64,000 nucleotides of DNA from Escherichia coli (GCF_030013205.1 NZ_CP122648.1); one strand, 5' to 3'; positions 1,185 through 8,638 are shown, counted from the first letter of the stretch. Translations and numbers: made by a program. The notes: generated by a model not told the origin, from the letters alone.

Positions 1185-2141
1185 TCAGTGCTGCTGCAAA
1201 AAGTCTTCAATGTCAGCCAGTGAGGATATCCCTTCCATCGGACCTTGCCGCATTACGGCGAGCGCGCCGCTGGCATTTGCATATTGCAGTGCCTTATGTG
1301 CCGGGAAACCGGATAAGAAAAGAGTGATAAACGTTGCGCCAAAGCAGTCGCCTGCACCCGTTGGATCGATAATTTCGATATCGTGGCCTGTAACATGCTG
1401 GGCGTGTAATGTACCGTTTTTAAGCTTGTAATAGCTGGCCCCACGCTGGGCGCGTTTTATCGCCACATGTTTTACGCCGCCGTGGAGAAGATCGCTAACA
1501 ATCTGTTCTTCTGACAGATTTTTGTGACGCGCGAAGAAAGGGAGTTCGCTTTCGCTGGGGATAAAAATATCCGTATATTCAATCAAATAATCGAGAGCCT
1601 GCGCCATTTCAGGAATACTCAGCATCTCTTTGCGAATATTGGGATCGAAAGAAACGGTGCCGCCAGCCGATTTGATCGTCGTTATTGCTTTACGCATGAC
1701 ATCGATCATGCGAAATGAGAACAATGATGAGCCCACAATATGCAGATGGTTACACTGTTTTAGCAGATCCTTATCAATGTGCTCAGCAGTAAACAAACCG
1801 CAGGCGCTGTTAGGGATATTAAAGACGAAATCCCGCTGCTGGGGATTTTGATAACTCACGAATGCCGTACCTGTTACGGCATTGTTCATAACATGGATCC
1901 CATCGGTAATGACACCTTCATGACGGAGACGCTCTATAATGAGTCGGCCAAAATCATCATTACCAACACATCCGAAGAAGATGGCCCGATGGGACAGTTT
2001 TGCCACCTGAGCAGCAAAAATTGCTGGTGCACCGCTGGGAAATGGCCCGATAAACTCCCCAGGCTGAGTGAATTTTTGATGTGGGTTGCGGGACAAAAAC
2101 TCGGCCAGCAATTCGCCCATAGAGCAGATAGTTATTGTCAC
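1185..2141 (-). CDS. PfkB-family carbohydrate kinase, KdgK-like (islet kinase A)
   Basis: ORF 1185..2195; contains the PfkB signature DPTGAGDCFGATF and an N-terminal IGE..E / GPFPSGAPAIF region; paralogous to the kinase at 7676-8638. Start chosen as the GTG at 2141 preceded by AGAGGGG; the upstream ATG at 2195 would overlap the regulator gene by 44 nt. Confidence 0.8.
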   Translation of the reverse strand: MTITICSMGELLAEFLSRNPHQKFTQPGEFIGPFPSGAPAIFAAQVAKLSHRAIFFGCVGNDDFGRLIIERLRHEGVITDGIHVMNNAVTGTAFVSYQNPQQRDFVFNIPNSACGLFTAEHIDKDLLKQCNHLHIVGSSLFSFRMIDVMRKAITTIKSAGGTVSFDPNIRKEMLSIPEMAQALDYLIEYTDIFIPSESELPFFARHKNLSEEQIVSDLLHGGVKHVAIKRAQRGASYYKLKNGTLHAQHVTGHDIEIIDPTGAGDCFGATFITLFLSGFPAHKALQYANASGALAVMRQGPMEGISSLADIEDFLQQH

Positions 2142-2151
2142 AAAACCCCTC

Positions 2152-2982
2152 TCATTCCTGAAGCCTCTCGCGATTGGACCAAGTAAAGCACTCATTACTG
2201 GTATAAAGGATAACGAAATCAGCCGACTGCAATTGTTGCTGATATTGTTCGTTAATGCTGCGGCTGACGATCACATTTTCTGCCTGATGCAAATGCCCGA
2301 TAGCAGCCGTTGATGGCGCAGGATCGGCGGCAACGATAACTGTCTTATTCTGGGCATGATCGAAACAGAGCTGCCAGGCAGCGGCAAGTCTGGGAACGTT
2401 GATATTTAAAGTACCATCAGCATCCAGATGGCTGATTTCCAGAATGCTGTGTGTAATGGTGAAATGCTGAAGTGCCTGTTCGAGCGGTTTTCCGGCCAGT
2501 GCGGTGTCGGGGCGCAGCATTTCACTGCCAGCCAGTATTATTTCGCCATCAATAAACTGATTTGCCAGCAGCGCATGTTCGGGATCGTTGGTGATCAGAC
2601 GCAGTTTTTTCACTTCGCTGAGCAAGGGAATGATCTTACGACAGATTGTCCCATGTCCAAGAAATAGCGTGTCACGATCCCGAATTAACCGTGCGCAATG
2701 TCGTGCTATTTCCATTTGTTGTGCCAGAGACAATGGCGCGATCGGTTGTATCGCTTCTGGTTCAGAGGAGAGTGGTGTCGCAATAGCACCGCCAAATGAT
2801 CGCTTTAAATATCCCTGTTGCTCCAGATAACTGAGATCGCCGCGGATCGTCACGCCAGAGACACCAAGTTGCGCAGATAAGTCATCAACTTTGATTTCAC
2901 CCTGGGCGGCAACAATTTCTGCAATTTTTAATCTGCGTTTCAGTAGGTTAGACGATTTTCTCGGCACGTTAACACTCTTCAT
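2152..2982 (-). CDS. DeoR-family transcriptional regulator (HTH plus sugar-phosphate-binding domain)
   Basis: 276-aa ORF; N-terminal segment RLKIAEIVAAQGEIKVDDLSAQLGVSGVTIRGDLSYLEQQGYLKRSFGGA resembles the DeoR/GlpR/AgaR HTH; co-directional with and immediately upstream of kinase A. Confidence 0.8.
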   Translation of the reverse strand: MKSVNVPRKSSNLLKRRLKIAEIVAAQGEIKVDDLSAQLGVSGVTIRGDLSYLEQQGYLKRSFGGAIATPLSSEPEAIQPIAPLSLAQQMEIARHCARLIRDRDTLFLGHGTICRKIIPLLSEVKKLRLITNDPEHALLANQFIDGEIILAGSEMLRPDTALAGKPLEQALQHFTITHSILEISHLDADGTLNINVPRLAAAWQLCFDHAQNKTVIVAADPAPSTAAIGHLHQAENVIVSRSINEQYQQQLQSADFVILYTSNECFTWSNRERLQE

Positions 2983-3323
2983 TGGCCTTTAATGCGTAAC
3001 ACTATAGCCCCTTGTATTTTTCTTTGAAAGTTATCCTTCAATAATATCGACAATTCGAAAAGAAAATCATGGGCCAAAAATCGCAACGAAAATAGCTTAA
3101 TGCATTGAAAAATAAATGAATTAATTCATATTTATGCAGAGGTGTTATTGGTTTCACTTGCAAAGTGAAAAACAAATTAAGTTATTTTTTGTAAGTTATT
3201 TTGATGATATTCGACATGCATCACGCTTTTTTCCGCTTTTGCTGTGCTAGTTTGCTTTCAAAATGAAAGTGAAGATTCTCTTTCTTCATTTTGTAAGGCG
3301 AACGACAAATAACAGGAGCTGCG
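2983..3323. promoter_or_regulatory. divergent promoter/operator region between the regulator-kinase operon and the aldolase-transporter operon
   Basis: 341 bp, AT-rich and non-coding, flanked by divergent start codons. Contains perfect palindromes ATGAATTAATTCAT (3116-3129), TTTCACTT-gca-AAGTGAAA (3152-3170) and CTTTCA-aaa-TGAAAG (3255-3269); AAGTGAA recurs. Confidence 0.6.
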
Positions 3324-6664: not shown

Positions 6665-7654
6665 ATGACAGAGAAAACTCTTGCCAGTCCGAAACCTTCG
6701 GAAATTCCCATTGCAAATAATTTTAAAAAAGTCTTCAGGCAATATGGCGGTATCCTCAGTGGAATGGTGGTGTTAATCATTCTGTTCAGTTTTATTAATG
6801 ACAGTTTTTTTACCGCCAATAACATTACTAATATTATTCTTCAGGTTTCGATAATTGCAATTACCGCCTATGGAATGACTTATGTACTTTTGCTTGGCGA
6901 TATTGATTTATCGGTTGGTTCAACCATTGCATTGATTGGCACATTTGCTGCGCTTGGGGCTTCATGGGGAATTCCATTTATTTTATTGGTCCCATTATCC
7001 ATTATTGCAGCACTGGCTCTGGGGATGATAAATGGTGGCTTGACGGCTATAGCGGGGATCCCGTCGTTTATTGTCACCGTTGCTACTATGGGGATCTTCC
7101 GTGGTATCGCTTATATAGTGACCGATGGTATGCCCATCATGATTAAAGATGATGCCTTTCTGGCGCTGGGGAATGAAGAATTTCTCTATATACCTATTCC
7201 TATCTGGATATTAATCATCTTATTGCTGATTAACCACTTCATTCTTACTAAAACAACCTTTGGACGAAAAATTTATATCACTGGTGGTAATAAAGAAGCG
7301 GCAGTTTATTCAGGGATAAATGTCACCCGCTTGAAAATTAAAGTCTTTATGATTACAGCCGTGCTGGCAGGTATCAGCGGGATGATCCTCGCGTCACGCC
7401 TCTATTCCGGGCAACCGAATTCCGCGTTGAGCTACGAACTGGATGCTATTGCTGCGGCTGTACTGGGAGGCACCAGCCTGAACGGCGGCTATGGAACCGT
7501 GGTGGGGACGGTGATCGGCGCATTAACCATCGGCGTTATTAATAATGGCATGAACTTAATGAATGTTCCCTATTTTTACCAGATGGTGGTTAAAGGATTA
7601 GTCATTCTTGTAGCCGTTTATTTTGACGTAAGAAATAAAAGAAAACGCAGCTAA
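6665..7654 (+). CDS. sugar ABC transporter permease (RbsC-like, single membrane component)
   Basis: 329-aa highly hydrophobic ORF starting 1 nt after the ATPase stop; consistent with a monosaccharide ABC permease. Confidence 0.85.
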   Translation: MTEKTLASPKPSEIPIANNFKKVFRQYGGILSGMVVLIILFSFINDSFFTANNITNIILQVSIIAITAYGMTYVLLLGDIDLSVGSTIALIGTFAALGASWGIPFILLVPLSIIAALALGMINGGLTAIAGIPSFIVTVATMGIFRGIAYIVTDGMPIMIKDDAFLALGNEEFLYIPIPIWILIILLLINHFILTKTTFGRKIYITGGNKEAAVYSGINVTRLKIKVFMITAVLAGISGMILASRLYSGQPNSALSYELDAIAAAVLGGTSLNGGYGTVVGTVIGALTIGVINNGMNLMNVPYFYQMVVKGLVILVAVYFDVRNKRKRS

Positions 7655-7675
7655 TCATTTCAAGGAATTAATCAT

Positions 7676-8638
7676 ATGAGTAAGGTCTTCACAATTGGAG
7701 AAATTCTGGTTGAAATTATGGCGAGTAAAATCGGCCAGCCATTTGATCAACCAGGTATCTGGAACGGCCCTTATCCCAGTGGCGCACCCGCTATTTTTAT
7801 CGACCAGGTGACACGTCTTGGCGTTCCGTGCGGCATCATTAGCTGTGTGGGGAATGATGGCTTTGGTGATATTAATATACATCGTCTGGCTGCTGACGGT
7901 GTGGATATCAGGGGGATTTCAGTCTTACCTTTGGAAGCTACCGGGAGTGCCTTTGTTACTTATCATAACTCTGGCGATCGCGATTTTATTTTTAATATCA
8001 AGAATGCCGCTTGCGGTAAATTATCGGCGCAGCATGTTGATGAAAATATTCTGAAGGACTGTACCCATTTTCATATTATGGGTTCATCCCTGTTTTCATT
8101 CCATATGGTAGACGCAGTAAAGAAAGCGGTAACCATTGTAAAAGAGAATGGTGGCGTTATTTCTTTTGACCCTAATATTCGGAAAGAGATGCTCGATATT
8201 CCAGAAATGCGTGACGCCCTCCACTTTGTTCTTGAGTTAACAGATATCTATATGCCCAGCGAGGGAGAAGTGTTGCTCTTGTCGCCACACTCGACACCGG
8301 AGCGTGCAATCGCTGGTTTTCTTGAAGAAGGTGTTAAAGAGGTGATTGTGAAGCGCGGCAATCAAGGTGCCAGTTACTACTCCGCGAATGAGCAGTTTCA
8401 TGTTGAGAGCTATCCGGTGGAAGAAGTTGACCCGACTGGTGCGGGAGACTGTTTTGGTGGCGCGTGGATTGCCTGCCGCCAGCTAGGGTTTGACGCCCAT
8501 CGGGCATTACAATATGCCAACGCCTGCGGTGCACTGGCGGTAACCCGACGTGGCCCAATGGAGGGAACGTCTCGCCTTGCGGAAATCGAAGCGTTCATCC
8601 AGCGCCATGACATGTCCATTCGGGAAGCAGCACAATGA
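7676..8638 (+). CDS. PfkB-family carbohydrate kinase, KdgK-like (islet kinase B)
   Basis: 320-aa ORF; N-terminus MSKVFTIGEILVEIMA and GPYPSGAPAIF, C-terminal DPTGAGDCFGG signature; shares long identical stretches with kinase A (e.g. SFDPNIRKEML.IPEM, MGSSLFSF). Confidence 0.85.
   Translation: MSKVFTIGEILVEIMASKIGQPFDQPGIWNGPYPSGAPAIFIDQVTRLGVPCGIISCVGNDGFGDINIHRLAADGVDIRGISVLPLEATGSAFVTYHNSGDRDFIFNIKNAACGKLSAQHVDENILKDCTHFHIMGSSLFSFHMVDAVKKAVTIVKENGGVISFDPNIRKEMLDIPEMRDALHFVLELTDIYMPSEGEVLLLSPHSTPERAIAGFLEEGVKEVIVKRGNQGASYYSANEQFHVESYPVEEVDPTGAGDCFGGAWIACRQLGFDAHRALQYANACGALAVTRRGPMEGTSRLAEIEAFIQRHDMSIREAAQ

Follow-up and report, generated by a model that had tools for sequence, protein, structure and literature searches.

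The D-tagatose utilisation island of Escherichia coli Nissle 1917 has been published as the tag locus (Ha et al., 2022, PMC9720028; Park et al., 2025, PMC12226905). According to the published genetics, imported D-tagatose is phosphorylated to tagatose-6-phosphate by TagD, which is encoded in the tagatose-induced operon tagYABCDE, host PfkA forms tagatose-1,6-bisphosphate and TagY cleaves it, the route thus running from ketose through the 6-phosphate and the 1,6-bisphosphate to trioses (PMC9720028). In-frame deletion of tagD abolishes growth on tagatose, and the need for host PfkA in the second phosphorylation comes from the only test done, in a K-12 host carrying six tag genes and lacking tagRK (PMC9720028). 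On tagatose tagRK changes about 2-fold and tagYAB more than 1000-fold, and tagR and tagK have been suggested to be of no more than limited importance for the use of tagatose (PMC9720028). TagR represses the tag operon, its ligand has been modeled as free D-tagatose, and dRNA-seq of the island located two transcription start sites only, upstream of tagR and of tagY (PMC12226905). Both papers already give two sugar kinases at 51% identity; they are silent on the lid motif of these kinases, the start codon of tagK and its evolutionary origin.

The window, a stretch of 64,000 nucleotides from E. coli (GCF_030013205.1, NZ_CP122648.1), contains this same island at the accC/yhdT insertion site (Ha et al., 2022; Park et al., 2025). 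Eight genes, flanked by accC and yhdT, follow the published order, tagK-tagR diverging from tagY-tagABC-tagD-tagE, and the identity follows from the matching insertion site, gene order, gene lengths (the kinase genes as annotated are 963 and 936 bp), 341-bp intergenic region and operators (PMC9720028, PMC12226905). On the minus strand are tagK (1185-2141), whose open reading frame encodes a PfkB kinase of 318 aa from the tagatose-kinase family, referred to here as kinase A and named tagK in PMC12226905, and tagR (2152-2982), encoding the repressor of the tag operon, a DeoR/GlpR-family protein, as assigned by RefSeq and NCBIfam and by its published role (PMC12226905). The divergent promoter region with Preg, Ptag and a CRP site (2983-3323) is 341 bp long, exactly the published length, and holds two predicted TagR operators: tagO1 (3255-3273, plus strand), the sole match, which departs from the published sequence at 1 position, with 0 expected by chance, and tagO2 (3279-3297, minus strand), which matches the published sequence exactly. 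The plus-strand genes are tagY (3324-4178), tagABC (4214-7654) for the ABC transporter (binding protein 4214-5104, ATPase 5165-6664, permease 6665-7654; RefSeq, PMC9720028), tagD (7676-8638) for D-tagatose kinase, or kinase B, and tagE (8635-9681), annotated by RefSeq as an aldose-1-epimerase-family (DUF4432-type) protein, which shares 4 nt with tagD at its stop codon and matched no profile in an NCBIfam search. TagY is a class II tagatose-1,6-bisphosphate aldolase in RefSeq and scores 478 bits on NCBIfam TIGR01858 (cut-off 444), which specifies the bisphosphate-type aldolase that an earlier reading of the sequence alone had proposed. That sequence-only reading had also placed two paralogous PfkB kinases in divergent operons, one with the regulator and the other with the transporter and aldolase, and both the open reading frames and the dRNA-seq (PMC12226905) agree with it. 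The island was found in 1419 of 5426 complete genomes. The copy in the window is 100% identical to those of pig ETEC/O139:H1 strains and 98% identical at the nucleotide level to those of ST131, NU14 and ATCC 25922, and its differences from the Nissle 1917 locus are allelic only, at about 2% nucleotide divergence from B2-type copies. The two kinases belong to an island already known, and since their Ser-Gly lid motif is normal for their family, the finding is largely ordinary.

Kinase A and kinase B share 161 of 312 residues in BLASTP (52%, E = 1e-117). Two of the long identical blocks noted earlier, SFDPNIRKEML.IPEM and DPTGAGDCFG, are indeed common to both; the third is GSSLFSF, since kinase A has VGSSLFSF and the leading M belongs to kinase B only. 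Kinase A matches Pfam PF00294 over residues 35-304 (E = 5.4e-45), and homologues of kinase B carry the same domain. Among NCBIfam models, the tagatose kinase equivalog NF049991 is by far the top family for both, at 346.1 bits for kinase A and 413.9 for kinase B, though both stay under its cut-off of 420, kinase B just below; in relatives, a Yersinia TagD orthologue reaches 426.6 bits and a Caballeronia protein 488. The former description of the pair as KdgK-like does not hold for function, as the KdgK models, with cut-offs of 400-440, give the pair only 67-144 bits (128 and 144 on NF040938, 67 and 75 on NF052444, each with a cut-off of 400), and the models for IolC, fructokinase, ribokinase and FrlD score far under their cut-offs for both. 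For kinase B the assignment to D-tagatose kinase is further backed by the deletion phenotype (PMC9720028) and by the crystal structure PDB 3IQ0/3K9E, an E. coli structural-genomics entry under the generic label "putative ribokinase II," from which it differs by 3 substitutions over all 320 residues; from the A-B comparison, kinase A should be about 52% identical to that structure.

Both kinases possess the motif GP(F/Y)PSGAPAIF at the position of the PfkB di-glycine, as had been claimed, GPFPSGAPAIF in kinase A (2016-2048, minus strand) and GPYPSGAPAIF in kinase B (7766-7798, plus strand). Alignment of their PSGAPAIF to the PGGAPANV of Vibrio fructokinase 5EY7 sets Ser against the leading Gly of the di-glycine and Ile against the sugar-binding Asn, so the canonical GG..N N-terminal sugar-lid motif of PfkB is absent from both proteins. 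This is a subfamily-wide variant, not the peculiarity that it had seemed: of 232 close homologues 230 have Ser-Gly, as do the tagatose kinase of Sinorhizobium meliloti pSymB and representatives with as little as about 30% identity, and the fuller signature GP[FY][PA]SGAPAIF covers both kinases, 230/232 homologues and the S. meliloti enzyme. This is the outcome that the sequence-only reading had itself named as counting against its claim. The Ser-Gly/Ile lid is the ordinary signature of the tagatose-kinase family and no mark of lost or altered activity, and for enzyme annotation it sets tagatose-kinase-like PfkB proteins apart from fructokinases and KdgK. The DxxGAGD motif with the catalytic Asp is likewise present in both kinases and conserved above 95% in either clade, DPTGAGDCFG spanning 1338-1367 (minus strand; anion hole and Asp265) in kinase A and 8429-8458 (plus strand; Asp258) in kinase B.

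The start of tagK deserves correction. At the junction TGA GAGGGG TTTT GTG (2139-2154, minus strand), the tagR stop TGA (2154-2152) is followed directly by the Shine-Dalgarno sequence GAGGGG, then TTTT and GTG at 2141, and this layout is kept in Yersinia, Klebsiella, Salmonella, Gilliamella and Cedecea. Moreover, the N-termini of about 120 homologues begin at the position equivalent to GTG 2141, whereas the RefSeq start at ATG 2120 (311 aa), which looks seven codons short, and a longer frame from ATG 2195 (336 aa, overlapping tagR) both mismatch them. Six orthologous junctions together with these N-termini give good support to GTG 2141 and argue for tight coupling, as the sequence-only reading had anticipated from the ribosome binding site by the regulator stop; TagK is thus probably coupled translationally to TagR. 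The corrected start codon is relevant to anyone cloning or deleting the gene.

Kinase A shows no sign of decay. Its dN/dS against ATCC 25922 is 0.086, a value such as the other island genes show (0.04-0.10), and this together with its deep conservation rules out pseudogenisation. In the alignment, both kinase clades show more than 95% identity at 84 columns, among them E14, SGAPAI, TG.AFV.Y, RDF..N, GSSL.S, DPN.RKE and DPTGAGDCF. The two clades are told apart by only 10 columns, whose differences are conservative save at 225/222 (His/Glu), and at none of them do the conserved motifs gain a basic residue. With catalytic and motif residues intact and under purifying selection, TagK looks active, the conservation of its pocket having been judged by motifs and alignment. 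In a neighbour-joining tree, midpoint-rooted and without bootstrap values, kinase A falls among kinases that accompany the regulator in PTS-type loci, and kinase B joins tagatose kinases linked to a transporter. This tree, and the fact that PTS-locus kinases are roughly as far from A as from B, rule out a recent duplication in situ; the two arose by duplication, as had been proposed, in the distant past and not locally. We infer, and this is new here, that kinase A is an old paralogue. It is probably the orthologue of the kinase placed after the DeoR regulator in the sampled tagatose-bisphosphate-aldolase loci of Enterobacterales and Orbales, both those with an ABC transporter and those with PTS uptake: a DeoR gene lies immediately upstream of the kinase in the window, in the seven regulator-clade loci sampled from other genera, and likewise in a Pseudoalteromonas locus.

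What role, then, could an active second kinase play? We consider it probable, with due reserve, that TagD is the bulk catabolic kinase and that TagK is a low-level kinase making a phosphorylated inducer of TagR. TagK would be a near-constitutive tagatose kinase that converts the first cytoplasmic tagatose molecules to tagatose-6-phosphate; this product, possibly after conversion to the bisphosphate by PfkA, would be the true effector releasing TagR, and once the operon is induced the bulk flux would be carried by TagD. Effectors of the DeoR/GlpR family are typically sugar phosphates (deoxyribose-5-phosphate, glycerol-3-phosphate, fuculose-1-phosphate, and tagatose-6-phosphate for LacR), which counts in favor of a phosphorylated inducer. 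A comparison of TagR with solved structures, seeking a ligand-bound relative, gave no match at E <= 0.001. The conserved regulator-kinase cassette, with its upstream DeoR gene, its junction, the operator-like half-sites that resemble tagO at matching positions in PTS-type loci, and its place in the tree, points the same way, as does the small response of tagRK beside that of tagYAB. Against the proposal stand the free-tagatose ligand model of Park et al. (PMC12226905), the fact that the tagD deletion is not even slow-growing, which argues against TagK as an efficient tagatose kinase, and the import of tagatose-1-phosphate in PTS-type loci, which leaves free cytoplasmic tagatose for TagK unaccounted for. 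More tentatively, and at somewhat less than even odds, TagK and orthologous kinases, the Salmonella gene beside garD among them, may act as a "sentinel" in a conserved two-gene sensing cassette with the DeoR repressor, using free tagatose to make a phosphorylated inducer without depending on the catabolic route. On the regulator-linked Salmonella genes STM3251/STM3252, no functional data were found in the papers in which any of three locus tags occurs. A stronger version, by analogy, would have TagK also bind TagR directly as a Gal1/Gal3-like kinase-coregulator.

A less likely reading, though one to be taken seriously, is that TagK is a back-up or substrate-shifted isozyme with no regulatory role, phosphorylating tagatose redundantly at low level or acting on a related ketose or anomer. 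Membership of both kinases in one family with matching motifs, the purifying selection on tagK and the limited role suggested by Ha et al. (PMC9720028) would suit such an enzyme, and the clade-specific A43/I42 beside the lid motif and H225/E222 could tune specificity, but there is no redundancy for growth in the tagD deletion (PMC9720028), and the constant DeoR-kinase order and stop/start coupling across differing uptake routes would be left unexplained. Sequential phosphorylation at C6 and C1, one of the roles suggested from sequence, seems improbable. TagD would then form tagatose-6-phosphate and TagK would add the C1 phosphate to make the bisphosphate for the aldolase, and it is true that PfkA has been shown to be needed only in K-12 with a six-gene plasmid lacking tagK (PMC9720028). 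However, on TIGR03168, the model of 1-PFK, LacC and PfkB-II phosphosugar kinases (cut-off 216), TagK scores a failing 51 bits and TagD 46, against the 346 of TagK on the tagatose-kinase model, while kinases adjoining the PTS genes in Salmonella and Gilliamella pass with 289-313 bits; the conserved motifs lack any clade-specific basic residue that might signal a phosphosugar pocket; PTS-type loci retain the regulator-linked kinase although a 1-PFK-type kinase covers the second phosphorylation there; and tagK is barely induced by tagatose (PMC9720028). The other earlier suggestion, a non-catalytic sensor signaling tagatose to TagR by protein contact like yeast Gal3, gains something from the tight co-expression with the repressor and the conserved His/Glu surface-type switch between clades, but is very improbable given that in the regulator-linked clade conservation exceeds 95% for the catalytic Asp, the GAGD anion hole, DPN.RKE and the lid motif. 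A catalytically active TagK that also binds TagR, like Gal1 of K. lactis, is a conceivable variant.

If TagK does supply the inducer of TagR, it may be a product of the kinase and not tagatose itself that truly induces, in which case tagK (and PfkA) would have to accompany tagR into other hosts. Were the cassette also a sensing unit in its own right, it could be reused unchanged when the uptake module swaps between PTS and ABC.

Two groups of known systems come close to the island. The ABC-linked tagatose kinase of S. meliloti and Agrobacterium (NF049991) is like kinase B in family, in its motif GPFPSGAPAIF and in its place after an ABC transporter, with about 50% identity, but in S. meliloti a GatZ/KbaZ-like tagatose-6-phosphate epimerase and a LacI-type regulator come after the kinase (PMC9720028), and the locus has no aldolase, DeoR regulator or second kinase. 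The PTS-type D-tagatose/galactitol loci of Salmonella, Klebsiella, Cedecea and Orbales set a DeoR gene and a tagatose-kinase-family gene divergently against a GatY-like aldolase, just as the island does; their aldolases are 68-71% identical to TagY, their regulators 41-43% to TagR and their kinases 56-60% to kinase A. These loci differ in taking up sugar by a PTS (EIIBC and EIIA-HPr) where the island has an ABC transporter, and in possessing a 1-PFK-type kinase (TIGR03828, 294-320 bits) and neither ABC transporter, TagD nor TagE. More distantly, fructokinase, KdgK and ribokinase have the Pfam family, fold class and GAGD catalytic motif in common with the island kinases, whereas at the lid fructokinase 5EY7 has PGGAPAN and S. 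tokodaii KdgK has AGSEAN in place of PSGAPAI.

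The eight genes that hold the two kinases occupy the yhdT-accC interval of the window in two divergent operons, and they are exactly the accC/yhdT island of E. coli Nissle 1917 (Ha et al., 2022; PMC9720028), for which the names tagK, tagR, and tagYABCDE were given by Park et al. (2025; PMC12226905). The minus-strand operon opens with the DeoR regulator gene tagR (2152-2982), with tagK, encoding kinase A (1185-2141), located 3′ of it. The plus-strand operon carries, in order, the class II tagatose-bisphosphate aldolase, the ABC transporter, kinase B (tagD, 7676-8638), and the aldose-1-epimerase-family gene tagE (8635-9681), of the DUF4432 type, 4 nt of which (ATGA) overlap the stop codon of tagD. 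K-12, B, and W strains given the six-gene operon can grow on tagatose (PMC9720028); only two transcription start sites have been mapped in the island, TagR was shown to be a repressor, and two operators were predicted (PMC12226905), both of which we found in the window by sequence search. G+C content is about 43-47% across the island (1000-9700) vs. about 52-55% in the flanking yhdT/panF and accC, which is consistent with horizontal acquisition, as Ha et al. already remarked (PMC9720028). By megablast, the island is present in 1419 of 5426 complete E. coli genomes and its flanks in essentially all of them, the copies of pig ETEC/O139:H1 strains being 100% identical and those of ST131, NU14, and ATCC 25922 about 98%. 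Between the window and ATCC 25922, dS of tagD is 0.13, about twice that of other island genes (about 0.06), and this could mark a recombination patch. tagE matches none of the NCBIfam models; its ATCC 25922 copy carries a frameshift annotation, and an otherwise identical Yersinia locus lacks the gene. Phosphorylation of ketohexoses at C6 requires the furanose or open-chain form, and TagE might be a candidate tagatose pyranose/furanose mutarotase.

The two kinases are clearly related (52% identity, E = 1e-117; 51% as published for the island, PMC9720028), and the identical blocks listed in the sequence-only reading are present in both, except that the leading Met of MGSSLFSF occurs in kinase B alone. 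The crystallised protein of PDB entries 3IQ0/3K9E, named there “putative ribokinase II,” matches kinase B at all but three residues. The motif GP(F/Y)PSGAPAIF, rightly noted in both proteins, aligns opposite PGGAPANV of the Vibrio fructokinase 5EY7, so that in the lid di-glycine the first Gly is replaced by Ser, and the sugar-binding Asn is replaced by Ile; the corresponding site of the characterised Sulfolobus KdgK reads AGSEAN. For both kinases the top NCBIfam model is NF049991 “tagatose kinase” (414 bits for kinase B and 346 for kinase A, against a cut-off of 420); assignments to KdgK, fructokinase, IolC, ribokinase, or 1-PFK were rejected, with scores far below this. Of 232 full-length proteins homologous to these kinases, 230 carry Ser-Gly, as do nearly all 50%-identity-cluster representatives, down to about 30% identity, and the ABC-linked tagatose kinase of S. 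meliloti pSymB carries GPFPSGAPAIF. The motif had been noted as a departure from the expected di-glycine, and by this comparison it is therefore ordinary for the tagatose-kinase family, a subfamily whose characterisation is genetic rather than enzymological for E. coli TagD (PMC9720028) and likewise, in the terms in which that paper cites it, for S. meliloti. The original observation is accurate, but the locus is published and the motif is standard for its family.

The GTG start suggested for tagK holds up well: the tagR stop TGA is directly followed by GAGGGG, four T, and then the GTG at 2141. The RefSeq/PGAP model (WP_001446002.1 and WP_001298584.1, minus strand) starts instead at an ATG at 2120 and gives 311 aa, and the JGI gene call P0001 gives 318 aa. 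N-termini of about 120 homologues lie two to three residues ahead of a conserved (T/K)-I-C-(T/S) strand, and where RefSeq places its ATG these proteins have Met, Ile, or Leu, so that position is not a conserved start. The same layout of stop, Shine-Dalgarno, and start recurs in Yersinia, Klebsiella, Salmonella, Gilliamella, and Cedecea, where the gaps range from -1 to 11 nt. The comparative evidence thus favours GTG 2141 (318 aa), and the RefSeq model probably lacks the first beta-strand.

The kinases had been thought to have arisen by duplication, and the neighbour-joining tree of 83 non-redundant homologues speaks against a local one, as it divides into two groups and separates them. The first holds kinase B, its enterobacterial orthologues, and beta-, alpha-, and gamma-proteobacterial proteins named tagatose kinase by NCBI. 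The second unites kinase A and its orthologues of two-kinase ABC-type loci (Yersinia, Serratia, Klebsiella huaxiensis, Sodalis, and a Pantoea-like symbiont) with kinases of Salmonella, Klebsiella pneumoniae, Cedecea, Buttiauxella, and Orbales. By this placement, the E. coli pair are old paralogues brought together. All seven kinase A-group loci fetched from other genera have a DeoR gene directly upstream of the kinase and a divergent GatY-like aldolase, downstream of which lie an ABC transporter and a TagD orthologue in Yersinia, and a 1-PFK-type kinase, PTS EIIBC, and an EIIA or EIIA-HPr protein in the others. TagY is 68-74% identical to their aldolases and TagR 41-62% to their regulators. 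Operator-like TTTCAAAATGAAAG half-sites (CTTTCA-N2-TGAAAG-like) occur in the window at 2983-3323 and in the aldolase/DeoR intergenic regions of all seven, at matching positions, and they are spaced alike from the start of the aldolase gene whether the locus is ABC-type or PTS-type. A common operator is thereby suggested, but no more than that, since the region is AT-rich. Comparison of loci and half-sites thus indicates that the conserved core consists of the regulator with its kinase, plus operators and aldolase, and that the uptake/first-kinase module has been exchanged. Pseudoalteromonas carrageenovora (L012:7135-14742) offers a third type of locus built on the same pattern: a tagatose-kinase-family gene comes after a DeoR gene, and further downstream another paralogue, with 46% identity to kinase B, adjoins a GatZ/KbaZ-like gene and one for a short-chain dehydrogenase. 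The DeoR/kinase pair of the PTS-type loci (Klebsiella, Salmonella, Gilliamella, Cedecea, and Zophobihabitans; about 7000-11000 in L003-L006, L009, and L010) adjoins garD in Salmonella and Klebsiella; a search of the literature available to the analysis found no functional data on these pairs, which are apparently uncharacterised.

What, then, does TagK do? In-frame deletion of tagD abolishes growth on D-tagatose, TagK being unable to substitute, and on tagatose tagRK changes about 2-fold vs. a more than 1000-fold rise of tagYAB (PMC9720028). In the window and the fetched loci, TagK is coupled to the repressor gene in both ABC- and PTS-type contexts. The usual effectors of DeoR/GlpR regulators are sugar phosphates. 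Taken together, the simplest reading, which we advance tentatively, is that TagK makes the inducer for TagR: it would be a low-level standing tagatose kinase whose product, tagatose-6-P or the bisphosphate after PfkA, would be the effector, and TagD would supply catabolic capacity once the operon is induced. A plain back-up or substrate-shifted isozyme is rather unlikely, though it comes next in probability. In both tree groups, 84 alignment columns are over 95% identical and cover every recognisable active-site motif (GE.LVE, SGAPAI, TG.AFV.Y, RDF.FN, GSSL.S, DPN.RKE, DPTGAGDCF, and GPMEG); the ten group-discriminating columns comprise nine conservative swaps and His/Glu at 225/222, and add to the conserved motifs no basic residue for sugar-phosphate binding. 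With a tagK dN/dS of 0.086 vs. 0.04-0.10 in other island genes (window against ATCC 25922), kinase A is therefore under constraint and very probably active, with a pocket resembling that of TagD. This picture weighs against the sequential phosphorylation proposed earlier, with TagK as tagatose-6-P 1-kinase, which we consider improbable even if the requirement of PfkA for the second phosphorylation in K-12 was shown with a plasmid without tagK (PMC9720028), so that formal room for such a role is left. The same conserved motifs and dN/dS make a non-catalytic sensor, also proposed, hardly credible.

The analysis thus yields a corrected tagK start codon, the placement of tagK in a conserved regulator-kinase cassette that tagatose loci of the PTS type also carry, and a hypothesis on the role of tagK that can be put to the test. 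The proposal that TagK is an inducer-making kinase differs from the working model of Park et al. (PMC12226905) in the putative effector of TagR, which would be a phosphorylated product in the former and is free tagatose in the latter.
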